Part shown: in pieces, positions 11,994-27,070 of the stretch
Layout: every line of letters begins with the position of its first letter
Position numbering within the stretch: the first letter of the stretch is position 1
Assembly (NCBI GenBank): GCA_045545475.1
Contig: JAZQAZ010000018.1
Coordinates: 32,001 to 96,000, forward strand
Origin: Clostridia bacterium
GTDB taxonomy: Bacteria; Bacillota; Clostridia; CAKSNL01; HGM11501
DNA: 64,000 bases
Direction: 5' to 3'
Program-made: the position numbers and the translations under genes
The notes under the pieces: model-generated
What the model was told of the DNA's origin: nothing
Seen by the model: the letters and a program-made list of their open reading frames with translations, nothing else
Database searches by the model: none

Positions 11994-13088
11994 TTATATA
12001 CGGGTGTCGCATTTTATGTATTTTCTGTTCCAGCCTTCATTAAAATCTATGTCATCGGGGCAGCCTGTGAACAGGTCAGAAGCAAGCTCCTCAATTTCTG
12101 CACGAAGTTCCAAATTTTCAAGATAATAGTCGGGGATTGCGTCGACTCCGAGGTATGCACCGATTATACTTCCCGTTATAAGGCCTGTGGAGTTACTGTC
12201 TCCGCTGTGGTTAACTGCGGCAACTATTGCTTTTTCAAAGCTGTTCTGATACTTTAAGCTGCAGTAAATACCGATTGCAAGTGCTTCCTCTGCCAAAAGA
12301 CCGGAATTTCCGAGACGGCGTATTGCATCGGTATCGTCGATTTCTCTTCCGGCAAGCTTTATGGCACGTTCTATAAGGTCTATCAGATTTTGTGTTTCCG
12401 GATAAGTCTCCTTTGTGCCGTCCAAAGTATCAAGACAGTCATATACAATAGTATATAAATTCTCATCGGTGTGAGCTGCATTGTTTATTATATGAACCAT
12501 TGCGGCAGCACTTACGAATCCCAGAGGATGGCCGTGAGTTATTGCGGCGGACTTTGCACCGATTAAGTCTATTCTCTCTGTTCCGTATTCTTCTTTGTCA
12601 AAGTAAAGTCCGATAGGGGCAACCCTCATCATTCCTCCGCATCCCTTGCTTGAGTTGAGCCTGCCTTCAAGCGTCCCCATAACTCCGCTGGATAATGCAT
12701 ATAAGTTGGTGTTTCCGGGGGCTCTTTTTGACTGTAATGCTTTCAAATGATAAATCCAGCTTATTATGTCTTCATCCTTGAAAAGGGAAGGCATCTGGGT
12801 GCGAAGCCAATCCTTATACGCCTTGTGTATGTAGTGACAAACGGGAGCCATTACGCCTTTAACTTTTTCGCGTGTAGCACCGAAAAGAATACCGTTTGCG
12901 GTAAACATAGTCATCTGAGTTCCGTCGGAAATTAATGCTTTCCCATCTTTAAACTCATAGCGGGTTATACCGTTTTCACCGTATTTTTTTCTGATTTCGT
13001 CTAAACTTTTGAACTCGACGGCATAACCTAATGCGTCACCTGCCGCTCCGCCCAAAAGACAGCCCTTAAATTTTCTCAATTCCCTCAT
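11994..13088 (-). CDS. ADP-ribosylglycohydrolase family protein (atypical active site)
   Basis: 'GCLLGGAAGDALG', 'SKGCGGMMRVAP', 'ITHGHP' and 'VNHSGDSNSTG'. Confidence 0.9.
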   Translation of the reverse strand: MRELRKFKGCLLGGAAGDALGYAVEFKSLDEIRKKYGENGITRYEFKDGKALISDGTQMTMFTANGILFGATREKVKGVMAPVCHYIHKAYKDWLRTQMPSLFKDEDIISWIYHLKALQSKRAPGNTNLYALSSGVMGTLEGRLNSSKGCGGMMRVAPIGLYFDKEEYGTERIDLIGAKSAAITHGHPLGFVSAAAMVHIINNAAHTDENLYTIVYDCLDTLDGTKETYPETQNLIDLIERAIKLAGREIDDTDAIRRLGNSGLLAEEALAIGIYCSLKYQNSFEKAIVAAVNHSGDSNSTGLITGSIIGAYLGVDAIPDYYLENLELRAEIEELASDLFTGCPDDIDFNEGWNRKYIKCDTRI

Positions 13089-13228
13089 TTATATCTCTGC
13101 CTTTCTGTGGGTAACAGAATTATTCTATCAAAAATATCTGATTTTTACAAGGGGAAATTTCGAGTTTTTTTTCGTTATTGCGATTTTTTTGACAAAAAAA
13201 TATATTTTATACTAATTGTAGTGTTTTT

Positions 13229-14431
13229 TTATTCCCCTAAATTTTTTTTCTTTTCTGAAAACATATTTCCTGCACGGAAAACTGCTCCGCTCCCGAATTT
13301 TTGCTTTAATGCATCAATTGCAGCATCCACCTTTTCATGCTTTTCGCATTTCTGTTCTTCATCAAATAGCGAAAGCTGAGTGGGAGAATCGGCTTTAGAT
13401 AAAGATAAAGCTGTAACGGTAAGCATTCTAACCGGTTTTCCGGATTCCCAGCGTGCTTCAAAGAGTAAAAAGCATTCGGTTGCTATGTTGTGAAGAGAGT
13501 TTGTGGGACTTATGGCCTTTTGTCTTGTAATTGTGGTGAAATCTTTATCCCTTATAGTAAGCTGAACGGACGAACATTTAAGATTTCCTTGACGGAGTTT
13601 TTCGGCAACGGTATCGGAAAGGGAATAAATTGCAGATTTTATTTCTTCCGTGGTTGTAAGGTCATGCGGAAATGTCATGCCGTTACCGATTGATTTAACC
13701 TCTCGCTTATCAAGGTAAGATTTTACAGGGTCATCGTCAAGGCCTTTGGCGTAAATGGAAAGCATTTTGCCGTGCTTTCCGAAGCGTTCCGACAACAGTC
13801 TTTCATCAGCCGAGGCAATGTCTCCGATTGTATTTATTCCAAGAGCCTTGAGGCCCAAAGCAGTATTTCGTCCCACATATAAAAGCATATCACAGGGAAG
13901 ATTATAAATTTTTTCTTTATAGTTTTCCTCTGATAAAACTGTGACGGCATCCGGCTTTTTCAAATCGCTTCCGAGCTTTGCGAAAATCTTGTTAAAGGAA
14001 ACGCCGACGGAAATGGTAATTCCGATTTCCTTTTTCACACGTTCCCTTATCATGTGGGCAATTTCTTCTCCGCTTCCGAAAAGCTTTAAGCTTCCCGTAA
14101 CATCCAGCCAGGACTCGTCAATTCCGAATTTTTCCACCTGCTCCGTATAGTCGCAGTAAATGGCGTTTACCCTCTCAGAATACTCCTCATAGATGTCGTG
14201 ATGGGGAGGAACGATTGTAAGGTTCGGACATTTTTTCAATGCCGATCCTATGGTTTCGGCTGTTACTATTCCGTAGCGTTTTGCAAGTTCATTTTTGGCG
14301 AGGATTATTCCGTGGCGGTTTTCCCTGTTTCCGCCAACAGCCATGGGAATATCTTTGAGGGATGGATTAAGTGCACATTCAACAGATGCATAAAAGCCGT
14401 TACAATCGCAGTGCAGTATTGTTCTTGCCAC
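13229..14431 (-). CDS. dinB: DNA polymerase IV (Y family)
   Basis: AAGGAGG RBS before GTG 14431; 'ILHCDCNGFYASVE', 'GIDESWLD', 'AKLGSDLKKPD' and clamp-binding 'QLSLF'. Confidence 0.95.
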   Translation of the reverse strand: MARTILHCDCNGFYASVECALNPSLKDIPMAVGGNRENRHGIILAKNELAKRYGIVTAETIGSALKKCPNLTIVPPHHDIYEEYSERVNAIYCDYTEQVEKFGIDESWLDVTGSLKLFGSGEEIAHMIRERVKKEIGITISVGVSFNKIFAKLGSDLKKPDAVTVLSEENYKEKIYNLPCDMLLYVGRNTALGLKALGINTIGDIASADERLLSERFGKHGKMLSIYAKGLDDDPVKSYLDKREVKSIGNGMTFPHDLTTTEEIKSAIYSLSDTVAEKLRQGNLKCSSVQLTIRDKDFTTITRQKAISPTNSLHNIATECFLLFEARWESGKPVRMLTVTALSLSKADSPTQLSLFDEEQKCEKHEKVDAAIDALKQKFGSGAVFRAGNMFSEKKKNLGE

Positions 14432-14534
14432 GAAAATCACCTCCTTGTTATTTTAATATTATATCAGTTTTTTATCCTGTTTTCAAGTGTTATAAAAATG
14501 TTGTTTTTTTGAAAGTTTATATTGAATTTTTATA

Positions 14535-14563
14535 TTGACAGTTTTTATCCGGAATGTTAATAT
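14535..14563 (+). promoter_or_regulatory. SigA-type promoter of the cobalamin operon
   Basis: TTGACA-17 bp-TAATAT with extended TG. Confidence 0.7.
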
Positions 14564-14580
14564 AAGTAAAAATAAATATT

Positions 14581-14763
14581 GCACATAGTGTGTCCGTTAT
14601 ACCGTATGGGTATGATGGGTGAAAAGGGAATCCGGTCAGACTCCGGAACGATACCAGTCGCTGTAACTACCCGTATAATCCGTCGGCGAAAGCCGGTCAT
14701 TGGGAAACTGAGAAGGCAGGGTTATACGTAAAGAGGTGGAAAGTCAGAAGACCTGCACTAATG
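14581..14763 (+). ncRNA. Cobalamin (AdoCbl) riboswitch
   Basis: Conserved blocks 'tgaaaagggaatccggt', 'gctgtaa', 'gtcattgggaaactgagaagg' and B12 box 'aagtcagaagacctgc'; P1 pairing tagtg/cacta. Confidence 0.93.
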
Positions 14764-14869
14764 CTGCTCCGTACTTGCTTTGCATAGGGGCGGCAGTTTT
14801 GTCGGCATTTTCCGTTTATGGAAAAGGCTTTGCTTTACGTTGGACAAAATGTGCAGACACAGAAACGCT

Positions 14870-14903
14870 GCTGTGGTAATTTTTTAATTACCACGGCTTT
14901 TTT
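14870..14903 (+). terminator. Riboswitch expression-platform terminator (attenuator)
   Basis: gctgtggtaatt-tttt-aattaccacggc followed by tttttt, in the leader upstream of the first CDS. Confidence 0.8.
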
Positions 14904-14987
14904 GTTTTCTGTTATAAAAGGAGGTGTAAAAGAAAAAATAGCGACGCTTTAATAAAGACAATTTAACAAAAAGAAAGGATAGTAAAA

Positions 14988-17900
14988 ATGAAAATTAAAA
15001 AAGCGTTATGCCTGCTTTTATCACTGGTTATGATATTCGGCATGGCACCTTCGGCAATAATTTCAGCTGAAGAAAATGAAACAACTGATGAAATTAAGGT
15101 TTATATGACAGTAGTAAATAAGGGTGTTATTGCTTCGGACAATGAAGGAGACATAATGGCAAACCGTGAACTTACGGTTTCGGATATTGACGAAGACGGA
15201 AAATTCACCTTCCACGAAGCGTTAATCGCTGCACATAAGGAATATAACAGCGAAGATGGCTACGATGCAGGAAGCGGAAATGGAGTAAGCGTTGTAAAGC
15301 TCTGGGGAATTGATTCGTATAACAACCTGTTTTTTATAAATGATGTGGGAATTCCCGATGGAGTTGGAATTAATGAGGTAAAAGACGGGAATTTCCTTAC
15401 AACATCAATATGTCAGGATAGCAAATACTACTGTGACCGCTATACCTTCTTTGATAAAAAGGAAGTTACTGCTATCGAAAATGAGGAATTTACTCTTAAC
15501 TTAAAGGGGTTCTGGGGGATGGCTTCTGAAGGAGACGACCTTTTGCCAAAGCCTTTTGAAGGACTTGCTATCTGTACCTGGGAAGATGGCGAACTTAAAG
15601 AGATTGAAGGAAAAGCGACAGACGAAGACGGTAATGTAAATCTTTCCTTTTCCGAAGCGGGAACTTATTATGTGACGGCAAAAGGTACGGTAAAGGCAAT
15701 GGTTACCGACTGGTGGACAATGAAGGAGGTTGAGGCAGACTGCCCCATAATCGCACCGCTTTGTATCGTAACAGTAGAAGAGATTGCTCCTCCCGAATCC
15801 ATTAAGATAGAACACGATGCAAAAAATGTTATTGACGGAGTTATCATAGCTAAAAAGGGCGATAAATTCAATCTCCTTGCCTTTGACGAAAATGGCGAAG
15901 AAACTCCCGTTACATGGAAGAACGAAAGCTACGGCAATACAGTTACAATAGATGAGGTTACAGGCGAAGTAGAGGTTACGGGTGATATTTACGGCGGCAC
16001 ATCCTACCTTTATTTTGAGGCCACATCCACGATTGACGAGACTGTGAAAAAAGAAGTCACCGTTCTTATGACCGGCTTTATCTTAAGCCAGTATCAGAAG
16101 GAGCAGACCGTAACACTTTCTGAGGATGGACAGACGGCAAAGACAGCATCTCTTAATGCCGGTAAAAAAGGACATAATATCTGGAATTATAACATTCCCG
16201 ATGGTGTTGCAGAACTTACTGCAGACCCCGGAAACGGCGGAGAAATAAAGTTCAACGTATATAGACCGGGTGTAATTGAGGTGGGCTTTGCCCTTGACAT
16301 AAATGAGGAGCTTTCCGACAGCGGAATAATTAAAGTAGAGGGCGTTGCCGTTGAAACTTTGAATGGAGAAAGAGGAAAGGTTTATCTTGAGATAGGGAAC
16401 GAGGAAGATGCACCCACAACGGAGCTTACTGCCTATGTTGCGGAGGGCAGAGAGGTTTCCTCGTGGATAAGCCTTGATGAGGATATTGCCACAGTTTCGG
16501 AAAACGGCGTGGTAACGGCTGTGGGTGTCGGAAGCGTAATTATTCAGGCCGTGGACAATGAAGGCGCGAAGGGCGGAATAAAGGTAGTTGTTGAAAGCAG
16601 GGAAATACCTTATTTTGAAAGCATCGAATTTCAGACAAGCTACCTTGCATCGGGTTCCTGGGTAAAGGGCGAAACATTTAATCCCACGGTAACGGAGTAC
16701 GATCTTACTGTTTCACGTTATTCCTTAAGCAATCTTGTTTTTCTTAAGGATACCTTGTATGACGATGTGAAATACTCGGCGAAAGCTTTGTACGAAGATG
16801 TATACGGCGAAGAAAAAGAGGTTTACATACATAGCGGAGCAGCAACAACTCTTTCCGATATACCCTTCGGTACTTCCGCTGTTACGGTAACGCTTTATGA
16901 AAAGGAAAACGAAAAAAATAAAACCGTTTATACCTTTAATGTAACACGTCCGAGAGATAAAACAAAAGCTTTAAAGACGGTTACTGTAAATCCTGAAGGA
17001 AGAACGCTTTCAAATACCTTGTATGAGGGCTATAAAGAAGGAACGATGCTGAGGTGTGACGAAGAAGGAACCCTCACTTCGGTAACAGGAATATACGGCT
17101 CGCATTATTATTACAGAACATATGTATACGGCGAAACCGACTTTACCTTATCCTTTGCCGCATCCACTGCCTATGCTCATATAAGATACAGCGTTGACGG
17201 CGAGGAGTGGACAGAGCTTGATTCTTTATTGAAATCGGAAAAACTTTCCTTTGACGAGGATGGTGTTATTGAGCTTTATATAGAAATTGCAGACGACGAT
17301 AGTTATACCTCTGACAAAGAAGCAGAGGGTGACGGATTTTCGGAGGGAAATACGGTAAGCTACAAGCTCACATTGATGAATGTTTCCGCAGAAGCTCCGA
17401 AAATGCTTACGGCTGAGGCAGAAGGGGACTGGTATCCTGCTTTTTCTCCTGACTTTTATACCTATCGCATAATGACAGAAAGTGATGCAAAAGCTCCCGT
17501 GCTTACCTTTACGGCAGAAGAAGGAGCAATTGTAAAAGATGAAAAAGAAATTATTGAGCCTGACGAGAACGGAATATATTCCGTAACCCTTAAAAACACA
17601 CAAAAGAGCATTACCCTTTCAGACAGCGAAGAAAAGTGCGTTAATACATATAAGTTCCAGTACACGAGAAAGTCATCCTCTGCTGTGCCCGATAAAGTGG
17701 TTGAGGCGGTATATATCGGCGGTCAGTATTCGGGAAGCTATGACGTTTATCCCGAACTTACGCTGACAGGCTCTATGCGTTCTCTCGGTAACTTCGGAGG
17801 ATATATCACATACTATTTTGAAGAAGCACTAAAAGATAACCCAAACAATATGTACGGTATGGAGTTTTACATCTTCGGAAACAGTATGGAGATGAATATT

Positions 17901-20141
17901 GATTCCATGGCGGAGCTTGGTCAGGTATACGTTTCCGAGGATGGAGAAACCTGGTATGCCCTTGCGGGAAGTGAGCATTATGAGGATAAGGCTTTATGGG
18001 ACTATGAAATAACCTATAAAAAGGGCGAGGATGGAAAGGCTTACTGGACGGATAATTACGGCAATGAAATGCTTACATCTGCCGCAAAGGCGTGGCCTGC
18101 AAAGGAAAAGTACCCCTTAAATCCCTATACGGAGGATGATGAATATACCTTCTCGGGAATTCTTTTCAAATGCCAGGAAGGCACTGTTATGGGTGATTCC
18201 ACCAACGGAAGCTTTGCATCAAAGGCATCCTTCGGCTATGTAGACTATTATAAGAACGGAAGCATAGTTGACGGAATGGTGGAGGATGTAAATTCCTATG
18301 TTGAAAATCCCACAATGGCAAACGGCTTTGACCTTCTCTGGGCGGTTGATGCTGAGGGAAACCCCGTGGATGTAAGTGATAAGGAATTCCATTATGTAAA
18401 GGTTGCAACTGCATCAAACATATGGGCGGGAAGCTTTTTTGAAAAATCCACTGAGGTAAGCAGCATAATTAGGACAACTCCTAAAGAAAACGAAGTTGGT
18501 AAAACCGAGGCCCCGGAAAGCATTGTGTTCACCGACGGTATCAGTGAGGTGAAAGTAAATATTTCGGAGGAAAAAAATATTTACGATATTGACCTTGGGG
18601 ATATGAAGTATATTTCCGTGAAGCTTAACGGTGCCAAGGAAGATGACAACATTTATATAAATAATCAGAGAATTGAAAGTGACGGAGCCGGAGAAGGCTT
18701 TAAGGTAACAAAGAAAAAAGAAACCCTTGTAAGATTAATTGTACAGAATGGAGACAGGGAGCCTTATCTTGCTCTTTTCCGTCTTTCGGGAACTGCAAAA
18801 GAAACTGACGAGCTTATTGAAGGCGTAAAGATAAATGTAGGAGGAGACATAAGAGAAGCTTGGACAAAGAATAAAAAGACCTATTCTGCTGAAGTGGGAA
18901 GCAAAATCGACAGCGTGAAAATTTTCCCTGTTGTAAAAAGCGGTGTTTCCGTTTTAATAAACGGACAGGAGCTTCTTTCCGAGTATGAACTTTCTTACGG
19001 TAAAAATTCCTTTGAAATAAATGTGGCGGATAAAGATGAAGAAAAAACAGTTACGCTGAATATAACAAGGAATAAAGAAACGGTTTCATCAGACAGTGAA
19101 ATTTCCGTAAGTTTCACCCTTTACGGAGATGATTTTCACGATGAAGATACCGTGCATACATTTAAAAACGATAAAAAGGATTTGCCGGTATGGATTACGA
19201 AAACAACATACAAGGTTGAAAAAGGTTCAACGGTTCTTGATGTATTTGAAATGGCTCTTTCGGATGCGGACATCACCTTTACAAATGCCGATGGGAATTA
19301 TATCTCCGAGATAAACGGACTTTCGGAGTTTGATAATGGTGCATTGTCAGGCTGGATGTACACCGTCAATGGAAAATATTCAAATCTTGGCTTATCGGAG
19401 CAAAAAGTGAAAAACGGAGATAAAATAGTGTTCCATTATACCGATGACTATACAAAAGAGAGCAGATCAGGTTCTTCGCAATCGGTGTCTTCGTCAGTGA
19501 AAGATGATGAAAAAGACGAAGAAAAGGAAGATGAAGAAAAGGAAGAAACAAAGCCCTCTGAAGAAAAGAAAGAAAATAAGAAGGAGTTTACGGACAGCAC
19601 TTTCAAGGATGTGAAAAAGGATAGTTGGTACTACGGAGCGGTAGAGTATTGCTATGAAAATACACTCATGGAAGGAACCGGGGAAAACTTTGAACCCGAT
19701 GCCCCGATGACAAGAGCTATGCTTGTAACAGTGCTTTTCAGATTATCGGGAGAAGAAGCGGGAAAAGAGAATCCTTTTGTCGATGTAGTTGATGGATTGT
19801 GGTATTCTGATGCGGTAATGTGGGCAAGTGAAAACGGTATTGTAACGGGAGTTACGGAAAAGAAATTTGCACCCGATGAGAATATAACAAGAGAGCAGGC
19901 AGTGACAGTTATTATAAGATACTTAGAGCATATAGACAAAGGCGTGGCAAAAAAAGCCGAACTTTCAGGATATACCGATGCTGAGGAAATAAGTCCATGG
20001 GCACTTGACGCTTTTTCTCTTGCCGTGGAAGGCGGAATAATTACCGGAACAGAGGATAAAAAGCTTTCGCCTAAAGAGGGTGCGACCAGGGCAGAAATAG
20101 CGACGATTATAATGAGGGTGTATGAAACTATTCTGAAATAA
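14988..20141 (+). CDS. Large SLH-anchored surface protein with Ig/cadherin-like repeats, a BtuH-like domain and DUF4430; putative corrinoid-capture protein
   Basis: Signal peptide; Big_2-like 'WISLDEDIATVSENGVVTAVGVG'; 'SLGNFGGYITYYF...FGNS...ELGQVYVSEDGETWYALAGSEH'; DUF4430 'YISEINGLSEFDNGALSGWMYTVNG'; three C-terminal SLH repeats. Confidence 0.85.
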   Translation: MKIKKALCLLLSLVMIFGMAPSAIISAEENETTDEIKVYMTVVNKGVIASDNEGDIMANRELTVSDIDEDGKFTFHEALIAAHKEYNSEDGYDAGSGNGVSVVKLWGIDSYNNLFFINDVGIPDGVGINEVKDGNFLTTSICQDSKYYCDRYTFFDKKEVTAIENEEFTLNLKGFWGMASEGDDLLPKPFEGLAICTWEDGELKEIEGKATDEDGNVNLSFSEAGTYYVTAKGTVKAMVTDWWTMKEVEADCPIIAPLCIVTVEEIAPPESIKIEHDAKNVIDGVIIAKKGDKFNLLAFDENGEETPVTWKNESYGNTVTIDEVTGEVEVTGDIYGGTSYLYFEATSTIDETVKKEVTVLMTGFILSQYQKEQTVTLSEDGQTAKTASLNAGKKGHNIWNYNIPDGVAELTADPGNGGEIKFNVYRPGVIEVGFALDINEELSDSGIIKVEGVAVETLNGERGKVYLEIGNEEDAPTTELTAYVAEGREVSSWISLDEDIATVSENGVVTAVGVGSVIIQAVDNEGAKGGIKVVVESREIPYFESIEFQTSYLASGSWVKGETFNPTVTEYDLTVSRYSLSNLVFLKDTLYDDVKYSAKALYEDVYGEEKEVYIHSGAATTLSDIPFGTSAVTVTLYEKENEKNKTVYTFNVTRPRDKTKALKTVTVNPEGRTLSNTLYEGYKEGTMLRCDEEGTLTSVTGIYGSHYYYRTYVYGETDFTLSFAASTAYAHIRYSVDGEEWTELDSLLKSEKLSFDEDGVIELYIEIADDDSYTSDKEAEGDGFSEGNTVSYKLTLMNVSAEAPKMLTAEAEGDWYPAFSPDFYTYRIMTESDAKAPVLTFTAEEGAIVKDEKEIIEPDENGIYSVTLKNTQKSITLSDSEEKCVNTYKFQYTRKSSSAVPDKVVEAVYIGGQYSGSYDVYPELTLTGSMRSLGNFGGYITYYFEEALKDNPNNMYGMEFYIFGNSMEMNIDSMAELGQVYVSEDGETWYALAGSEHYEDKALWDYEITYKKGEDGKAYWTDNYGNEMLTSAAKAWPAKEKYPLNPYTEDDEYTFSGILFKCQEGTVMGDSTNGSFASKASFGYVDYYKNGSIVDGMVEDVNSYVENPTMANGFDLLWAVDAEGNPVDVSDKEFHYVKVATASNIWAGSFFEKSTEVSSIIRTTPKENEVGKTEAPESIVFTDGISEVKVNISEEKNIYDIDLGDMKYISVKLNGAKEDDNIYINNQRIESDGAGEGFKVTKKKETLVRLIVQNGDREPYLALFRLSGTAKETDELIEGVKINVGGDIREAWTKNKKTYSAEVGSKIDSVKIFPVVKSGVSVLINGQELLSEYELSYGKNSFEINVADKDEEKTVTLNITRNKETVSSDSEISVSFTLYGDDFHDEDTVHTFKNDKKDLPVWITKTTYKVEKGSTVLDVFEMALSDADITFTNADGNYISEINGLSEFDNGALSGWMYTVNGKYSNLGLSEQKVKNGDKIVFHYTDDYTKESRSGSSQSVSSSVKDDEKDEEKEDEEKEETKPSEEKKENKKEFTDSTFKDVKKDSWYYGAVEYCYENTLMEGTGENFEPDAPMTRAMLVTVLFRLSGEEAGKENPFVDVVDGLWYSDAVMWASENGIVTGVTEKKFAPDENITREQAVTVIIRYLEHIDKGVAKKAELSGYTDAEEISPWALDAFSLAVEGGIITGTEDKKLSPKEGATRAEIATIIMRVYETILK

Positions 20142-20150
20142 GGTGAAAAA

Positions 20151-21209
20151 GTGAAAAAAACGATAGCTTTTATATTGATTATAATAATGAGCTTTCAGGC
20201 TACAAGTGTATTTTCTGAAGACACGGAAATAAACAGTGTGCTCTATAAATGTTCTGAATATATTCTTAATACTGTAAAAAATCCCACTTGTTCCTCGGTG
20301 GGAGGGGAATGGACTGTCTTAGGTCTTGCGAGAAGCGGTATCAAAATATCCGATGGATATTTTGATACCTATTACTCAAATCTCTGTGATTATTTAAATT
20401 CATGTGGCGGCGTAATGCACAGGGTTAAATATACAGAATATTCAAGGGCGATAATCGCTGTTACGGCAATTGGCAAAAATCCCTCGGATGTTTCGGGATA
20501 CAATCTTCTTTTGCCGCTTTCTGATTTTGATAAAACGGTAAAGCAGGGAATAAACGGCCCTATATGGGCATTGATAGCACTGGATTCGGGAAATTATGCG
20601 ATTGATGAAAATGTAAACGCTGTAAATCCCGCAACAAGAGAAAAATATGTTGACTATATACTTTCTAAGCAAACCTCCGAAGGAACATGGTCTTTATCCG
20701 GGGAAGGGACGGATCCGGATATTACGGCAATGGCACTTGTGGCTTTGTCAAAATATAAAGAGCGACAGGACGTTAAAGATGCTTTGACAAAAGCAATAAC
20801 TAAGATGTCAGAATTACAGACTTCATCCGGAGGATATATTACTGAAGGAACAGAAAGCTCAGAGAGTTCTGCCCAAATGCTGGTAGCACTTTCTGAGCTT
20901 GGAATAAGCTATACGGATTCCCGGTTTACAAAAAACGGCAACAATCTTCTTACAAATCTTTTGTCTTTTATGTTGCCGGAAGGAAGCTTTTGCCATACAA
21001 AGGCGAAAAAAGAGGCAAATCTTATGGCGACAGAGCAAGCATTTTACGCTGTTGTTTCAGTAAATCGGACGACAAAAGGAGAAAATACGCTTTATAATAT
21101 GTCGGATATTGCAAAAAAAGATAATTTGAGCTATAATGAATCATACATATCGGTTGTTATAGAGAAATTAAAGCTGATTACAGAAGCACTGGATAGGGCA
21201 AAGGGGTAA
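20151..21209 (+). CDS. Secreted alpha/alpha-barrel protein (prenyltransferase/squalene-cyclase-repeat fold; resembles the transcobalamin alpha domain)
   Basis: Signal peptide; helical repeats 'QGINGPIWALIALDS', 'DPDITAMALVALS', 'SESSAQMLVAL' and 'NLMATEQA'. Confidence 0.8.
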   Translation: MKKTIAFILIIIMSFQATSVFSEDTEINSVLYKCSEYILNTVKNPTCSSVGGEWTVLGLARSGIKISDGYFDTYYSNLCDYLNSCGGVMHRVKYTEYSRAIIAVTAIGKNPSDVSGYNLLLPLSDFDKTVKQGINGPIWALIALDSGNYAIDENVNAVNPATREKYVDYILSKQTSEGTWSLSGEGTDPDITAMALVALSKYKERQDVKDALTKAITKMSELQTSSGGYITEGTESSESSAQMLVALSELGISYTDSRFTKNGNNLLTNLLSFMLPEGSFCHTKAKKEANLMATEQAFYAVVSVNRTTKGENTLYNMSDIAKKDNLSYNESYISVVIEKLKLITEALDRAKG

Positions 21210-21212
21210 GGT

Positions 21213-21968
21213 ATGAAAAAAATAAAAGTTACTATATTATTGCTTTTTGTAATAGCACTGCTTACGTTTACTTTCTGGTGGGGCGGAAACGCTCCCGGAC
21301 TAAGAGGAGTAAATTTTGAAAAGAAAAATACCGAAAATGAAGTTACAGATACGATAAAAAGTACTGAAAGTGTTGAGCTGACAAAAGAAAGTGAAAAAGA
21401 GCCTGAAAAAGAGCCTGAAAAAGACGAAGAAGTAACAATCCTTCCGGAAGTCGAATCTGCTGAGGAAAAAGAAGAAGTTGTTTTACAATCGGAAGAAACA
21501 GAAACTTTGGAGGATTGCATCGTTGATACTGTTTCGGAAACGGTGGAAGAATCAAAAGAAAAGGAAATGTTTTGCACAATTTCGGTAAGGTGTGATACTG
21601 TGTTTGAAAACGAAAATCTTTTGGATGATTTCCTTCTCGGATGTTTACCTTCTGACGGAATTATTCTTGGCACACAGCAGGTATGCTTTACAGCAGGCGA
21701 CAGTGTTTTTGATATACTTGAAAGAACCTTGAAAGAAAAAAACATCCATATGGAATTTACGGCTACGCCCATGTATGAAAGTGTTTATATAGAGGGAATA
21801 GCAAACCTTTATGAATTTGATTGCGGGGAACTTTCGGGCTGGATGTATAAGGTGAACGGAAGCTTTCCGGATTACGGCTCGTCACTTTACGAGGTAAAAG
21901 AAGGCGATGTAATAGAATGGGTTTATACCTGCGACAGAGGAAAAGACGTGGGAGATACTGTAAATTAA
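21213..21968 (+). CDS. Membrane-anchored DUF4430 (transcobalamin C-terminal-like) protein
   Basis: N-terminal TM/signal, Glu-rich linker, then 'YIEGIANLYEFDCGELSGWMYKVNG...GDVIEWVYTCDRG'. Confidence 0.88.
   Translation: MKKIKVTILLLFVIALLTFTFWWGGNAPGLRGVNFEKKNTENEVTDTIKSTESVELTKESEKEPEKEPEKDEEVTILPEVESAEEKEEVVLQSEETETLEDCIVDTVSETVEESKEKEMFCTISVRCDTVFENENLLDDFLLGCLPSDGIILGTQQVCFTAGDSVFDILERTLKEKNIHMEFTATPMYESVYIEGIANLYEFDCGELSGWMYKVNGSFPDYGSSLYEVKEGDVIEWVYTCDRGKDVGDTVN
21393..21424 (+). repeat. 12-bp coding tandem repeat (EKEP) in a low-complexity linker
   Basis: gaaaaagagcct-gaaaaagagcct-gaaaaaga. Confidence 0.6.
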
Positions 21969-21986
21969 ACGAAAGAAGGGATTAAT

Positions 21987-22868
21987 GTGAACGAATTTAA
22001 GAGATTTCATCCTTTGGTAAATATGGTTTACTTCGTTTTTGCCATAGGCTTTTCGTGCGTGCTTTTAAATCCCTTTTGCCTGATATTCTCTTTAATCGGA
22101 AGTATCGCATTTATGCTTATGTGTGACAGCAAAGGCAAAAAGCAAATAGTTTATTTTGTGCCGGTGTTCATATTTGCCGCACTTTTTAATCCGCTTTTCA
22201 ATCACAGAGGACTTACGATAATAACATATTTCCCGGGCGGAAATCCTTTGACGGAAGAATCCATCGTCTACGGCCTCGCATCAGGTGCCATGCTTGTTGC
22301 GGTAATTGCATGGTTTTCCTGTTTTAACATGGTAATGACCAGCGATAAATTTATCTATCTTTTTGGAAAAGTTGCCCCATCGCTTTCGCTGATTTTATCA
22401 ATGACGTTAAGATTTGTCCCGAGGTTTATCTCGGAACTTAAAAAAGTGGCTGTTGCACAAAAAGGAATCGGAAACGGCATAGGAAACGGGAATATAAAGG
22501 ACAGAATTAAAAACGGATTATCAGTGCTTTCGGTAACGGTTACATGGGCACTTGAAAACGCTGTGGAAACATCTGACAGCATGAAGGCAAGGGGCTATGG
22601 TCTACCGGGCAGAAGTGCATTTTCTCTATTCAAATTTACGAAAAAGGACGCATTAGCTTTAATGTCCGTATTGTTTTTCGGTATATATTCGCTTGTGGGA
22701 GGATTCCTCGGGAAAATAAGCTTTGAATATTTTCCGACATATAAAATGGCACCACTTACAACATACAGCATAAGCGTTTATGCATCATATTTGATTTTTA
22801 TGTTGCTGCCTGCAATTATTGAACTTACGGAGGTGATAAAATGGAATGCTTTAAAATCGAAAATCTGA
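21987..22868 (+). CDS. ECF transporter transmembrane T component
   Basis: 'LRFVPRF' and 'SDSMKARGYG' EcfT motifs; hydrophobic profile. Confidence 0.9.
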   Translation: MNEFKRFHPLVNMVYFVFAIGFSCVLLNPFCLIFSLIGSIAFMLMCDSKGKKQIVYFVPVFIFAALFNPLFNHRGLTIITYFPGGNPLTEESIVYGLASGAMLVAVIAWFSCFNMVMTSDKFIYLFGKVAPSLSLILSMTLRFVPRFISELKKVAVAQKGIGNGIGNGNIKDRIKNGLSVLSVTVTWALENAVETSDSMKARGYGLPGRSAFSLFKFTKKDALALMSVLFFGIYSLVGGFLGKISFEYFPTYKMAPLTTYSISVYASYLIFMLLPAIIELTEVIKWNALKSKI

Positions 22869-25462
22869 CATTCGGTTATCCGGACTGCAAAAAAGCTGCA
22901 CTTGAAGAAATAAGTTTTACAGTCAAAAAAGGAGAATTTATAACCTTAATCGGTAAATCGGGATGCGGCAAGACCACACTTTTAAGACTGTTAAAGCCTT
23001 CCGTTTCGCCTTTTGGAGAAGAATCCGGAAATATATTTTTTATGGGCGAAAATATAAAAACGCTGGAAAAGGAAAAAGAGGCGGCAAAAATCGGCTTCGT
23101 AATGCAAAGTCCCGACAATCAGATAGTAACAGATAAGGTGTGGCATGAACTTGCTTTTGGTCTTGAAAGCCTTGGAATGAAAAGGGAAGAAATAAGGCTG
23201 CGTGTTGCGGAAATGGCATCTTTCTTCGGAATTCAGAATTGGTTCCATAAGAATGTTTCTGAATTATCCGGCGGACAAAAACAGATACTTAATCTTGCGT
23301 CGGTTATGGTTATGCAACCGGAATGTCTTATTCTGGACGAGCCCACAAGCCAGCTTGATCCCATAGCGGCATCGGAATTTTTAAAAACGCTGGAAAAAAT
23401 AAATAAAGAGCTTGGAACAACCGTAATTTTGTCGGAGCATCGTCTTGAAGAAGCGATAGCTTTGTCTGACAGAATCATCGTTTTAGATAACGGAAAACTG
23501 ATGGCAGACGGAACGGCAGACTGTATTTGCGGTGTACTGAAAGAAAAAAAGCACGGCATGTATCTTTCGCTTCCCACACCTGCGAAAATAGCCACGGCAC
23601 TTTCGGAGAAGGTCGAAAACATTCCGCTTAATATAAGGGACGGGGTTTCCTGGCTTAGTGAATATTCTGAAAATCATCCTTACGATGACTCGGTTACAGG
23701 AACGGATAAAAAGCGGGAAATAACCGATGTCTCCATAGAATTAAAGGATGTATATTTCAGGTATAAAAGAGAGCTTCCGGATGTGCTTTCGGCACTTTCA
23801 CTTAAAGTATACAAAGGAGAAATATATTCTATTCTTGGCGGTAACGGAACAGGAAAAACTACAACCATGTCTGTTATGGGAGGAATATTAAAGCCTTACA
23901 GCGGCAAAGTTCTGATTGACGGAAAAGAAATAGAAAAAACTGAAAATTTATATGGAAAAATCGGATTTCTGACACAAAACCCCGAACTGCTTTTCACGGA
24001 AAAAACAGTTATGGAAGATTTATTGGCGGCGGTAAAAGGGGAAGATGCGGAAAATATTGTTATTGACATGGCAAGACTCTTGAAAATTGACGGTCTTCTT
24101 AGGATGCACCCTTATGATTTATCCGGAGGCGAAAAGCAAAGGGCGGCACTTTGTAAAATACTTCTTAAAAATCCGTCAATTCTTCTTCTTGATGAACCGA
24201 CAAAGGGAATGGATGGAGAGTTTAAAAAGATTTTTTCGGGTATTCTTTCAAAGCTTAAAAAAATGGGGAAAACCATTGTTATTGTTTCTCACGACATAGA
24301 GTTTTGCGCGGAAAATTCCGATTACTGTACAATGTTTTTTGATGGCGGAATAGTCAGCGGAGATACTCCCGGAAAGTTTTTCTCCGGTAAGAACTTCTAC
24401 ACCACGGAAGCAAATAAAATGGGCAGAGGAATACTTCCGAAGGCTTATCTTACAGAGGAAATAGTAAAGGCTTTCGGAGGAGAAATGCCTGTGATATGCA
24501 ATGATGACACAGATGTTTTCAAAGCTATAAAAAGAGAAAAGGATGTACATGAAAAGAAAAAAATAAAAATCGGTAAGAATATATTTATAGGAAGCTTATT
24601 TGCAATAATTTTTCTTTTGCTTCAGATATTACTGGGAGATTATTTTGTCGGATGGAAAAATCATGCCGTGCAAATACTCTCATTAGTCTTCCTTGCTTTG
24701 TCTCTTTCGGCTTTTTTTCCTCAGAAAGAATTTGATGTTTCTAAAGTAGAAAAGGGAGAAAGAAGCAGAAAAAGTTTAGTGGCCGTGATTATTGTTTCAC
24801 TTATTATTATTCCGCTTACCCTGTGGCTGGGAACAGAGTTTCTTCAAAATAAAAAATATTATTTTACGAGCCTTATAATAATAGCAGAAACGATATTGCC
24901 TTTTCTGTTTTTATTTGAGAAAAGAAAGCCGAAGGCAAGGGAGCTTGTTGTAATAAGTACACTTGCGGCACTTGCTGTAGCGGGAAGGTCGGCGTTTTTT
25001 ATGGTGGCGAGCTTCAAACCTGTGCTGGCACTTATTATAATTACAGGGGTTACTTTGGGTGGAGAAACAGGATTTTTGGTTGGTGCAATAACGGCATTTG
25101 TTTCGAATTTCTTTTTCGGTCAGGGACCGTGGACTCCGTGGCAGATGGCTGCTTTTGCCGTAATAGGTTGCCTTGCCGGAATAATTTTCAGCTCCGGAAT
25201 GATAAAAAGATCGAGGCTTTCGCTATGTATATTCGGAGCGTTTGCGGCACTTTTTATCTACGGAGGAATCATGAATCCGGCTTCCGTTCTTACAATTTCG
25301 GCAGAGACTAGTAAAGATGCGATTCTTTCATCTTTCGTTTTGGGACTTCCGCATGATATAATCCATGCGGCATCTACCTTTATTTTCCTCTGGTTTATCT
25401 CCGGAGCGATGATAGAAAAAATTGAACGTATTAAGAAAAAATACGGTCTTATAAAAATGTAA
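22841..25462 (+). CDS. ECF transporter double ATPase fused to a C-terminal S-component (CbrT-like)
   Basis: Two Walker A motifs (GKSGCGKT, GGNGTGKT), two LSGG signatures and two LDEPT; C-terminal TM domain 'FLVGAITAFVSNFFFGQGPWTPWQM'. Confidence 0.9.
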   Translation: MECFKIENLTFGYPDCKKAALEEISFTVKKGEFITLIGKSGCGKTTLLRLLKPSVSPFGEESGNIFFMGENIKTLEKEKEAAKIGFVMQSPDNQIVTDKVWHELAFGLESLGMKREEIRLRVAEMASFFGIQNWFHKNVSELSGGQKQILNLASVMVMQPECLILDEPTSQLDPIAASEFLKTLEKINKELGTTVILSEHRLEEAIALSDRIIVLDNGKLMADGTADCICGVLKEKKHGMYLSLPTPAKIATALSEKVENIPLNIRDGVSWLSEYSENHPYDDSVTGTDKKREITDVSIELKDVYFRYKRELPDVLSALSLKVYKGEIYSILGGNGTGKTTTMSVMGGILKPYSGKVLIDGKEIEKTENLYGKIGFLTQNPELLFTEKTVMEDLLAAVKGEDAENIVIDMARLLKIDGLLRMHPYDLSGGEKQRAALCKILLKNPSILLLDEPTKGMDGEFKKIFSGILSKLKKMGKTIVIVSHDIEFCAENSDYCTMFFDGGIVSGDTPGKFFSGKNFYTTEANKMGRGILPKAYLTEEIVKAFGGEMPVICNDDTDVFKAIKREKDVHEKKKIKIGKNIFIGSLFAIIFLLLQILLGDYFVGWKNHAVQILSLVFLALSLSAFFPQKEFDVSKVEKGERSRKSLVAVIIVSLIIIPLTLWLGTEFLQNKKYYFTSLIIIAETILPFLFLFEKRKPKARELVVISTLAALAVAGRSAFFMVASFKPVLALIIITGVTLGGETGFLVGAITAFVSNFFFGQGPWTPWQMAAFAVIGCLAGIIFSSGMIKRSRLSLCIFGAFAALFIYGGIMNPASVLTISAETSKDAILSSFVLGLPHDIIHAASTFIFLWFISGAMIEKIERIKKKYGLIKM

Positions 25463-25520: not shown

Positions 25521-25643
25521 ATGAAGATAGAAAGATACGTCGGAGGAAAGAAATTAACCTTTGATCAGATTAAAAAATACACCATTAAAAACAAAGCCGT
25601 AGACATGGCTGTTGAACGTGTTATAAGACGTGAGGGCAGATGA
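25521..25643 (+). CDS. Small basic protein (40 aa) translationally coupled to the recombinase
   Basis: AAGGAGG RBS, ATG 25521, MKIERYVGGKKLTFDQIKKYTIKNKAVDMAVERVIRREGR*; its TGA overlaps the recombinase ATG (ATGA). Confidence 0.75.
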   Translation: MKIERYVGGKKLTFDQIKKYTIKNKAVDMAVERVIRREGR

Positions 25644-26989
25644 AAAAAGCGGCGTTATATATCCGTGTTTCAACGGATGCTCAAAGAGAGGAAGGCTATT
25701 CCATCGAAGCACAGAAGGAAATGCTTTCCGCTTTTTGCGTTACAAAGAAAATTGAAAATTATGAGTTTTTCATAGACGGAGGATATTCGGGAAGCAACTT
25801 GGAGCGTCCGGAAATGCAAAGACTCATAAAAGAGGTTTTTGAAAATAAAATAAGTGCGGTTATAGTTTATAAACTTGACCGACTTTCCCGTAGTCAAAAG
25901 GACACATTGTATTTGATAGAAGAAGTTTTAAACCCCAAGGGTGTTGATTTTATATCCATGAATGAAAGCATGGATACATCAACACCCTTGGGGCGTTTGA
26001 TGCTTGGAATACTATCTGCCTTTGCACAGCTTGAAAGGGAAAATATAAAAGAGAGAACCAGGATGGGGATGAAGGAGAGAGTAAAGGATGGCTACTGGCC
26101 CGGAGGAGGCAGAGTTCCGTTTGGCTATGATTATGACAGCGAAAAGGGGATTTTGGTCCCCAATGAAGATGCAAAAACCGTAAAACTTATATACAGCCTT
26201 TATTTAGATGGTTATCCCATGTATAAGGTGGCTAAAATGGCGGGACTAAAATATGAGCGTCTTGCTGTTCAGATACTTAAAAGAAAGTCCAATGCCGGAT
26301 ATATAATCTATAACGGTGAGGAATATAAAGGTCGTCACGAGCCTTTAATAAGTGAGGAAATTTACAACGCCGCAATGAAAATGATGGAGGAGCGAAGCAC
26401 GAAAAAATTTACCGATTCGGAATATCTTTTATCGGGAATGGTTTACTGCGGAGTGTGCGGGGCAAAAATGCGTTATCAGAAATGGGGAAAGCGTGGATGC
26501 AAACTCTGTTGCTATTCTCTGGAAAAGAACAAGCCTTATCTTGTGAAGGATGAAAATTGCACCAATGAAAAGATATGGGCAGATGAGGTGGAAGAGGCGG
26601 TGACAAAAGATTTACTGGGCCTTTCTTTTGAAATAAACTCGGGAGAATTCAATGAGCCGGATATTAAAGGTGTACTCGAATCAAAAAAAGAGCAGTGCGA
26701 AAAAAAGCTCAAAAGGTTATATAAGCTTTATGCTGAGGGTGAGGATGATGCCTTAATTGATTCCATAAATGAAGCTAAAAAGGAGCTTGGCAAAGCGGAA
26801 AAAGCATTAAACGATGAAAGAGCGAAGCTGTCCGAAAAAAAGCACATGAAGGAAAAAAGAAACTCTCTTAAAACACTTCCCGATACATGGCCGTATATGA
26901 CGAATGCGGAAAAACGCAATATAGTAAGAAGCCTGATAGACAAAGTTACGGTTACCGGGGATAATGTGAAAATTGATTATCTTCTATAA
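25640..26989 (+). CDS. Large serine recombinase (resolvase + recombinase + zinc ribbon + coiled coil)
   Basis: Catalytic 'YIRVSTDAQ', 'YKLDRLSR', 'AQLERENI', 'PFGY', zinc ribbon 'LSGMVYCGVCG' and C-terminal 'KRNIVRSLIDKVTV'. Confidence 0.93.
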   Translation: MKKAALYIRVSTDAQREEGYSIEAQKEMLSAFCVTKKIENYEFFIDGGYSGSNLERPEMQRLIKEVFENKISAVIVYKLDRLSRSQKDTLYLIEEVLNPKGVDFISMNESMDTSTPLGRLMLGILSAFAQLERENIKERTRMGMKERVKDGYWPGGGRVPFGYDYDSEKGILVPNEDAKTVKLIYSLYLDGYPMYKVAKMAGLKYERLAVQILKRKSNAGYIIYNGEEYKGRHEPLISEEIYNAAMKMMEERSTKKFTDSEYLLSGMVYCGVCGAKMRYQKWGKRGCKLCCYSLEKNKPYLVKDENCTNEKIWADEVEEAVTKDLLGLSFEINSGEFNEPDIKGVLESKKEQCEKKLKRLYKLYAEGEDDALIDSINEAKKELGKAEKALNDERAKLSEKKHMKEKRNSLKTLPDTWPYMTNAEKRNIVRSLIDKVTVTGDNVKIDYLL

Positions 26990-27029: not shown

Positions 27030-27070
27030 GCATATAATTGGAATAGTTGTATCCAAAAAGGAGTGGTTCT

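Follow-up and report, generated by a model that had tools for sequence, protein, structure and literature searches.

A riboswitch-preceded operon of a gut Clostridia bacterium predicted to capture and import corrinoids

Organization of the locus

The locus described here lies within a 64,000-nucleotide (nt) stretch of DNA from a Clostridia bacterium (assembly GCA_045545475.1, contig JAZQAZ010000018.1, positions 32,001 to 96,000), which is referred to below as the window. It consists of a cobalamin riboswitch followed by five genes on the same strand, termed g1 to g5, which encode a giant SLH-anchored surface protein, a secreted toroid, a membrane-tethered DUF4430 protein, the ECF transporter component EcfT, and a fusion of two ECF ATPases (A and A') with an S component, respectively (Table 1). 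The spacing between genes was 9 nt (g1-g2), 3 nt (g2-g3) and 18 nt (g3-g4), and g4 and g5 overlapped by 28 nt. Judged from sequence comparisons and predicted structures, this is likely to be a cobalamin-riboswitch-repressed operon by which a gut Clostridia species unable to make corrinoids scavenges and imports them.

The Cobalamin aptamer (RF00174) was found over the full length of the Rfam model (positions 1-189 of 189) with a score of 73.7 bits compared to a gathering score of 31.5 (E 2.7e-16). It was the sole Rfam match at gathering score within the window and the sole RF00174 match across the 2.74-Mb genome. The terminator hairpin proper occupied positions 14870-14897, directly 5' of TTTTTTGTTT, and three terminator-like sites were counted in the leader region compared to a mean of 0.4 in shuffled sequences. 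The fold of the leader between positions 14740 and 14915 reached -62.8 kcal/mol (z -4.63 compared to shuffles). An earlier note, made from the letters of this DNA without database searches, had described one promoter, a cobalamin riboswitch with a terminator and five tightly packed co-directional genes. The scan with the Rfam Cobalamin model and the 12-pair hairpin with its T-run agreed with the riboswitch and terminator, a single promoter was found as far as a consensus match can tell, and all five genes were recovered at the positions given. The identities that had been proposed for them (SLH giant, alpha-barrel protein, DUF4430 protein, EcfT and ATPase-ATPase-S fusion) were upheld by Pfam, AlphaFold2 and PDB matches.

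Table 1. Features of the operon and its leader (positions within the window)
Feature	Position	Strand	Basis or remark
Promoter-like site TTGACA-17-TAATAT	14535..14563	+	10/12 consensus matches, TG before the -10 hexamer; consensus match only
Cobalamin riboswitch aptamer (RF00174)	14573..14774	+	Rfam, full model
Intrinsic-terminator-like hairpin and T-run (expression platform)	14870..14907	+	Stem of 12 pairs, 5 GC, then TTTTTTGTTT
g1, secreted SLH-anchored multidomain protein, 1717 amino acids (aa), predicted corrinoid capture	14988..20141	+	Signal peptide residues 3-21
g1, N-terminal conserved region, residues 29-270	15072..15797	+	Found in 16/80 loci
g1, BtuH-type B12-binding domain (predicted), residues ~900-1165	17685..18482	+	phmmer, profile, Foldseek
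g1, DUF4430 (SLBB, transcobalamin-beta-type), residues 1413-1485	19224..19442	+	PF14478 E 9.2e-18, 64.9 bits compared to 23.8
g1, three SLH repeats (cell-wall anchor)	19593..20117	+	PF00395 E 5.9e-33, 3 stretches
g2, secreted (alpha/alpha)6-type toroid, 352 aa, without SLH anchor in this genome	20151..21209	+	
g3, N-terminal membrane anchor, acidic linker of ~95 residues and DUF4430, 251 aa	21213..21968	+	
g4, EcfT (CbiQ family), 293 aa, dedicated to the operon	21987..22868	+	
g5, EcfA-EcfA', four extra transmembrane helices and CbrT-like S component, 873 aa	22841..25462	+	

The ECF transporter module

The S component of g5 was located at residues ~696-873 (nt 24926-25459), where the match to PF07155 was barely above the cut-off (27.6 bits compared to 26.7). 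When residues 661-873 were compared with PDB chains, the sole significant match was CbrT (6FNP_A, E 9.7e-9 over 174 residues), with query residues 36-209 aligned to chain residues 6-177, in agreement with the CbrT-type S component considered in the earlier note. According to the accessible part of its report, ECF-CbrT (6FNP) is a demonstrated importer of B12 and cobinamide (PMC5997447), and cbrUVT serves as a standard genomic marker of B12 uptake. The remainder of g5 held two ABC_tran stretches; TIGR04520 scored 347.5 bits compared to a cut-off of 315, and cbiO-type ATPase models also matched.

Between the second ATPase and the CbrT-like domain, four transmembrane helices without a family were predicted at g5 residues 581-692 (window 24581-24916). 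This four-helix module was retained in the fused frames of relatives, the median length of which was 896 aa. Because the extra helices are even in number, the usual topology of the S domain would be kept.

The g4 product matched PF02361 (CbiQ) with 36.4 bits compared to a cut-off of 25, and the TIGR02454 equivalog model with 20.7 bits compared to 111.8. Since the latter score is far under the cut-off, g4 was taken as a divergent EcfT. A second, canonical EcfT (170.8 bits) is encoded elsewhere in the genome, indicating that the operon brings its own ECF module. Thus, the operon resembles ECF-CbrT of L. delbrueckii (6FNP; PMC5997447) in the match of its S domain and in encoding an EcfT and two EcfA domains. 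In contrast, the two ATPases, the four transmembrane helices and the S component form here one 873-aa polypeptide, the divergent EcfT belongs to the operon as part of a dedicated group-I-like module compared to a shared group II module, and three extracellular proteins are encoded in the same operon.

A BtuH-type domain in the surface protein g1

The signal peptide of g1 lacks a lipobox, and an SLH anchor is located at the C-terminus; Pfam assigned three SLH repeats and DUF4430, Big_2 and Cadherin-like domains to the protein. In a PDB search, the SLH region matched the S-layer protein Sap of Bacillus anthracis (6BT4, E 2.7e-10). There are two genes of the pyruvyl-transferase family (PS_pyruv_trans) in the genome, and these may act like CsaB, which would fit an SLH anchoring of g1 to pyruvylated wall polymer.

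No Pfam match was obtained for g1 residues 881-1180, even at E 10, and a PDB search with the whole of g1 returned SLH entries alone. When residues 881-1180 were searched separately with phmmer, matches to 8BLW_B (E 5.3e-12) and 7BIZ_A (E 1.4e-10) surfaced. A profile built from 19 Clostridia sequences reached the same two structures with E values of 1.2e-41 and 4e-35, respectively, and its span on 7BIZ (chain residues 219-489) took in the whole globular B12-binding domain. The AlphaFold2 model of this stretch had a predicted local distance difference test (pLDDT) value of 78.7, and Foldseek with that model gave 8BLW_B (E 4.8e-17, TMq 0.63) and 7BIZ (E 1.1e-14) as the sole matches at E <= 0.001, the next row having an E of 8e-3. 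As described in the accessible parts of two reports (PMC8941943, PMC10404256), 7BIZ is BtuH2 of Bacteroides thetaiotaomicron bound to B12, and chain B of 8BLW is BtuG1, in which a C-terminal extension of ~250 residues is a BtuH domain.

These profile and Foldseek matches indicate that the likeness of g1 to BtuH is one of homology, more than of analogy. The earlier note had compared the operon with the BtuG/BtuH surface capture systems of Bacteroides as an analogue, and the comparison turned out to be stronger than had been claimed, as g1 carries a homologous BtuH B12-binding domain. The residues of BtuH2 that form hydrogen bonds with B12 are Gln333, Asn399, His476, Tyr510, Trp511 and Trp577, with van der Waals contacts from Phe401 and Leu578; the nucleotide loop is contacted at its phosphate and ribose by Gln333 and Asn399 (Putnam et al.). 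The equivalent of Asn399 was N in all 19 aligned sequences, and that of Gln333 was Q in 14 of the 16 sequences with a residue at that position. Phe401 aligned with Met in g1 and with F in 7/19 sequences, and Leu578 aligned with F in 13/19. As far as sequence and predicted fold can tell, g1 residues ~900-1165 are a true member of the BtuH family with a ligand pocket that is only partly BtuH2-like. The predicted BtuH homology of this domain is new here.

Like BtuH2 and the H-domain of BtuG1, to whose whole C-terminal B12-binding domain it is homologous, the g1 domain is exposed at the surface, comes after Ig-like domains and has its coding sequence in a predicted B12 uptake locus behind a riboswitch. 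In contrast to BtuH, which has a lipid anchor in the outer membrane and BtuB/BtuG/TonB as its partners, g1 has SLH repeats on a Gram-positive-type wall and an ECF transporter as its partner. It also holds a DUF4430 domain, and His476, Tyr510, Trp511 and Trp577 are not conserved in it. Because it has no lipobox, an SLH anchor and an ECF partner, g1 shares the BtuH domain family and not the Bacteroides system.

In the N-terminal conserved region of g1 (residues 29-270), Pfam gave weak matches only (E > 0.08), hhalign against DUF4430 returned a probability of 5% over 27 columns, and a profile of the region found nothing credible among PDB chains. The end of this region shows a W-x-[FY]-x-[VI]-N...G-D pattern recalling DUF4430, and an Ig- or transthyretin-like stretch comes next. 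DUF4465 (BtuJ) was absent at E <= 10 in Pfam searches with four g1 pieces spanning residues 1-1400.

The g2 toroid and the tethered DUF4430 protein g3

The g2 protein has a signal peptide and no anchor. Its Pfam match to the prenyltransferase/squalene-cyclase toroid was weak and below the cut-off, and AlphaFold2 (42 homologues) predicted an alpha/alpha toroid with a pLDDT of 90.6. Transcobalamin chains were among the best Foldseek rows (E 1.5e-4 to 1.8e-3, TMq 0.52-0.55), and the top 50 structures by VIA-align Z (>=18.6) were cyclases, epimerases and glycoside hydrolases. The g2 family profile reached squalene-hopene cyclase (E 1.7e-8) and not transcobalamin, and there was no match of g2 to Pfam Cobalamin_bind at E <= 0.01. 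At the sequence level, g2 therefore appears to be outside the transcobalamin alpha family. The near-invariant D188-P-D190-I-T192-A of g2 aligned with the DVDDTA segment of squalene-hopene cyclase, in which the DxDD segment presumably provides the catalytic acid; the last Asp of DxDD is missing in g2, which reads DPDI. Thus, g2 is probably a catalytically inactive toroid of the terpene-cyclase superfamily.

In g3, a transmembrane helix was predicted at residues 4-22 and PF14478 matched residues 162-239 (nt 21696-21929, E 2.4e-19, 70 bits compared to 23.8). The acidic linker is of low complexity. The DUF4430 domain has four conserved Cys and was 36% identical to that of g1, these two being the only DUF4430 matches in the genome. 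Directly after the membrane helix of tethered DUF4430 proteins, the sequence WWGGNAPGLRG is near invariant (window 21213-21310, g3 residues 1-33), and the transporter might dock at this motif. When g2 residues 24-345 and g3 residues 112-251 were modelled as a complex, with alignments and with neither a corrinoid ligand nor controls, the score was 0.02 compared to a mark of 0.32, a result that weighs neither way.

The mammalian carriers transcobalamin, intrinsic factor and haptocorrin combine an alpha/alpha toroid with a DUF4430/SLBB beta domain, a pairing to which g2 and g3 may correspond, and in an order that is also seen in fused proteins of relatives. In contrast to these carriers, the two halves are encoded here by separate genes, and g2 is without a Cobalamin_bind match and nearer to terpene cyclases.

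Conservation of the operon in relatives

Both accessory families are large. At E <= 0.001, 4466 proteins were retained for g2 among 8000 candidates scored, and 4851 for g3 among 6704. For the locus set, one genome per species was scanned, giving 604 pattern matches, 600 of which encoded relatives, and 80 loci were kept, several of them cut by contig ends. They came from Oscillospiraceae, Intestinimonas, Flavonifractor, Sporobacter, Anaerovorax, Sedimentibacter, Pelotomaculum, Cellulosilyticum, a Paenibacillus and many metagenome-assembled genomes of Clostridia. In tblastn searches of these loci with pieces of the window proteins, the g3-type DUF4430 was found in 78, the g1-type DUF4430 and SLH in 76 each, EcfT in 69, the first ATPase in 68, the second in 66 and the S domain in 61. 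The gene order was nearly constant (large SLH/DUF4430 protein, toroid, tethered DUF4430 protein, EcfT, A-A'-S). A survey of gene neighbourhoods had been suggested in the earlier note as a check, and it showed that the core of toroid, DUF4430, EcfT and A-A'-S recurs in 80 loci.

A-A'-S was a single frame in 58 of the 61 loci with both ends and split in three; no A1 or S match was found downstream in the remaining 19 loci. In the closest relative (L001, 12655-15296), the toroid of which is 86% identical to g2, A-A' and S were two overlapping frames, and L043 and L045 were alike; these are either real splits or assembly frameshifts. The toroid had SLH repeats of its own in 67/80 loci and lacked them in 13, as it does in the window. 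The toroid and DUF4430 were joined in one frame in 9/80 loci, mostly in the transcobalamin order, and these fusions support the two working together.

The BtuH-type domain was present in 20/80 loci, always in a large surface protein and in 19 of them on the operon strand. In one locus (L021, 3147-3950), an in-frame stop interrupts the BtuH-type region; a pseudogene or a mistake in the assembly could account for it. When a library of 1.84 billion proteins was searched, 901 cluster representatives fell into the family (E <= 0.001), and most of the 150 matches listed were longer than 1000 residues. In an even sample of 300 genomes of the class, which includes the source genome and of which one was unscored, the BtuH-type domain (E <= 1e-10) was found in 16 genomes, or 12 of 178 genera, and toroid homologues (E <= 1e-20) in 93 genomes, or 64 of 178 genera. 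One genome (G180, contig C10, ~390000-412300) held six toroid homologues, four of them clustered, with frames of up to 3648 aa beside a BtuH-type match, and the set of capture proteins appears to be expanded in it.

With Rfam at gathering score, Cobalamin was found upstream on the operon strand in six of the seven loci first tested, and in L014 it scored 31.4 bits, 0.1 under the gathering score. As a stand-in for the covariance model, a sequence-only nhmmer profile was built from the Rfam-tested loci and iterated once, its seeds matching by construction, and it gave a riboswitch match upstream on the same strand in 47/80 loci. Together with L027, which was recognized by Rfam, this makes at least 48/80, a floor because the profile had missed the true riboswitch of L027. 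Two or three cobalamin-riboswitch-like elements were seen on the operon strand in L015 (5241-5459, 8609-8815), L029 (3427-3582, 4781-4960) and L035 (8370-9812), indicating that outer and inner genes may be separately regulated.

Predicted requirement of the source genome for B12

The assembly comprises 50 contigs and is 95% complete. Two proteins with a B12-binding domain were encoded, one of them a methionine synthase of the MetH type and the other a B12-radical-SAM/DUF4080 protein. A search for four families, CbiB, CbiC, CobS and the PduO-type adenosyltransferase, gave zero matches in this 95% complete genome, and on that account the source bacterium is probably a corrinoid auxotroph.

A proposed route for corrinoids and its alternatives

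The riboswitch, the CbrT-like S component, the DUF4430 domains, a probably auxotrophic genome with MetH and the conserved layout together give strong support to a corrinoid function, and the predicted capture and import of corrinoids is well supported, the more so in view of the BtuH homology of g1. The route would be as follows. At low cellular B12 the aptamer would be empty, the terminator would not form and all five genes would be transcribed. The SLH repeats would anchor g1 to wall polymer, and g1 would expose two unrelated corrinoid-binding modules at the surface, one BtuH-type and one DUF4430 (SLBB). The g2 toroid and the g3 DUF4430 domain could close around one corrinoid in the manner of the alpha and beta domains of transcobalamin, and both the fusions seen in relatives and Burroughs et al. 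2007 speak for such a cooperation. Since a single helix and a flexible acidic stretch of ~95 residues would tether the g3 domain, the domain could reach between wall and membrane. The CbrT-like S domain of g5 would receive the corrinoid, and import would be powered by the fused double ATPase together with g4, the EcfT of the operon itself.

An ordered hand-over from the wall to the shuttle and on to the ECF transporter may be imagined from this arrangement, as may the stripping of corrinoids from host carriers. It is proposed, tentatively and as a possibility that we would not yet call probable, that the ECF transporter, in contrast to all those characterised so far, is fed by a wall-spanning chain of extracellular binders. 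In this chain, an SLH-anchored catcher would be followed by the split toroid/SLBB pair, with a free or wall-bound toroid and a tether on which the corrinoid is carried across the wall, and the ligand would be delivered to the CbrT-like S domain fused to its ATPases. If so, multi-tier relays for B12 would have been put together both in monoderm gut Clostridia and in Bacteroides, in part from common components, and the separate toroid and SLBB proteins could serve as a living model of the bacterial precursor of transcobalamin and intrinsic factor in animals. It would also be the first demonstrated case of an ECF transporter that relies on extracellular binders.

Several observations weigh against this proposal or against the corrinoid function on which it builds. 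Four of the six hydrogen-bonding residues of BtuH2 have no conserved equivalent in the g1 family: His476 aligned with Pro in 19/19 sequences, and Tyr510, Trp511 and Trp577 aligned with variable or gapped columns. With 20/80 loci and 16/300 genomes, the BtuH-type domain is an optional outer tier. Searches of PDB chains with g3 and with two DUF4430 profiles reached no transcobalamin, intrinsic factor or haptocorrin, so that the link between DUF4430 and transcobalamin rests on Pfam PF14478 and the literature. In the fetched DNA of 32/80 loci there was no riboswitch, many of these loci being cut upstream or starting with genes longer than the flank, and six of the seven nhmmer-negative loci with long upstream flanks were also Rfam-negative. 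Moreover, one Peripla_BP_2 gene is present elsewhere in the genome, which makes a second uptake route possible.

The most serious alternative is that corrinoids are imported by the CbrT-like ECF transporter alone and that the three extracellular proteins independently concentrate, store or withhold them. B12 is taken up by ECF-CbrT of L. delbrueckii with no extracellular binder involved (PMC5997447), BtuH of Bacteroides is described as not stably bound to BtuBG (PMC10404256), and the domains of the outer tier vary, the BtuH-type domain occurring in 20/80 loci and the SLH anchor of the toroid in 67/80 and not here. In contrast, the toroid, DUF4430 and ECF genes keep a strict order across loci, g3 is tethered to the membrane with a conserved juxtamembrane motif, and toroid-DUF4430 fusions exist. 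A binder with a very slow off-rate would also be expected to starve the cell unless it were unloaded. An import without any hand-over is regarded as rather unlikely.

For g2 there is a separate alternative, namely that it works outside the cell as an enzyme or by binding wall polymer (as a toroid of the terpene-cyclase, prenyltransferase or alpha-macroglobulin-TED kind), acts on lipid or glycan and is only co-regulated with B12 uptake. Class II terpene cyclases were its top matches in structure as well as in profile searches, some relatives are named 'terpene cyclase/mutase family protein' by NCBI, and the near-invariant D188-x-D190-x-T192-A aligns with DVDDTA of squalene-hopene cyclase. Either role is nevertheless improbable, as the motif reads DPDI without the last Asp of DxDD and the protein is secreted, and SLH-anchored outside the cell in 67/80 loci, away from isoprenoid diphosphates. 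The toroid gene also always lies beside a DUF4430 gene and is fused to it in 9/80 loci, and the same toroid-SLBB fusions are described in the accessible part of Burroughs et al. 2007 (PMC1796856).

Import of heme has been reported for a related unit of L. sakei, Lsa1836-1840, which has separate beta- and alpha-like subunits and an ECF transporter, and this report speaks against a corrinoid function of the present operon (Verplaetse et al., 10.1101/864751). As stated in the accessible text, heme accumulation was impaired in a mutant deleted for lsa1836-1840 and was regained on complementation. The two units are alike by gene content, as the five genes of L. sakei also encode an S component, a double ATPase, a T component and separate transcobalamin beta- and alpha-like proteins; in contrast to the operon described here, that text makes no mention of a riboswitch, an SLH giant or a BtuH-type domain. 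A cobalamin riboswitch precedes this operon and those of at least 48/80 relatives, g1 has a BtuH-type domain and the S domain matches CbrT. The genome also needs B12 and has no match to CbiB, CbiC, CobS or PduO, and heme as the substrate here is considered very improbable. A cobalt transporter of the CbiMNQO kind, which could be read from the Pfam name of g4 ('cobalt transport protein'), from the matches of g4 to CbiQ and of g5 to cbiO-type ATPase models and from the fact that cobalamin riboswitches also control cobalt transporters, is scarcely credible, as the operon has neither CbiM nor CbiN, the S domain matches CbrT and not a metal S component, and a genome without a CbiB, CbiC or CobS match gives no sign of needing cobalt to make corrins.

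Relation to earlier predictions

Corrinoid competition shapes gut communities, and to our knowledge surface corrinoid capture has been worked out for Bacteroides only. The operon offers a candidate list of parts for B12 acquisition by wall-bearing Clostridia, in which this type of operon is common, and it contains bacterial proteins that may be tied to the origin of the animal B12 carriers. The overall kind of system had already been predicted. Scavenging of B12 by surface proteins of the transcobalamin-like SLBB type was proposed by Burroughs, Balaji, Iyer and Aravind (2007; PMC1796856). As described there, some of these proteins are fused to a toroid, and their genes, frequently as two paralogues, lie in CbiO/CbiQ operons of low-GC Gram-positives that lack B12 synthesis. 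The present loci are alike in placing a secreted or surface SLBB protein (now DUF4430), with or without a toroid, beside CbiO/CbiQ genes. They differ in that the earlier work was a comparative-genomics prediction, the accessible text of which makes no mention of a riboswitch, SLH, a CbrT-type S component, a fused A-A'-S or a BtuH-type domain, the last of these not being known in 2007.

A btuH homologue beside an ECF-like transporter was noted in Firmicutes by Putnam et al. 2022, and according to a 2026 review the part played by BtuH/BtuJ homologues in Gram-positive Firmicutes 'remains entirely uncharacterized' (PMC13616437). The earlier note had held that such a relay was uncharacterised as a whole. 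This stands in so far as no bench characterisation of a Gram-positive B12 relay was found in the literature; it does not stand for the idea itself, in view of the 2007 prediction and the Firmicutes btuH/ECF neighbour. The novelty lies in the SLH protein joining BtuH-type and SLBB modules, the split toroid/SLBB pair and the fused A-A'-S, within a kind of system that is widespread.

Sequencing runs and flanking genes

Parts of the stretch were contained in 20 listed sequencing runs from eight studies, labelled as animal gut metagenomes. A few contigs of 150-240 nt from one metatranscriptome library covered parts of g1 and g3 only; they carry no strand or level, DNA carry-over is possible and uncovered stretches are uninformative, and the contigs were not counted as expression.

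The genes on both sides are unrelated. Upstream, genes for an ADP-ribosylglycohydrolase and a Y-family (ImpB/DinB-type) DNA polymerase are located on the minus strand (11994-14440) and point away from the operon. No terminator-like site was found within 240 nt 3' of g5, nor between g5 and the large serine recombinase gene (25640-26989; Resolvase, Recombinase, Zn_ribbon_recom) that begins 178 nt 3' of g5. This side of the operon may be the edge of a mobile element. Next after the recombinase, a 957-aa protein with a copper-amine-oxidase N-terminal-like domain is encoded at 27047-29920.

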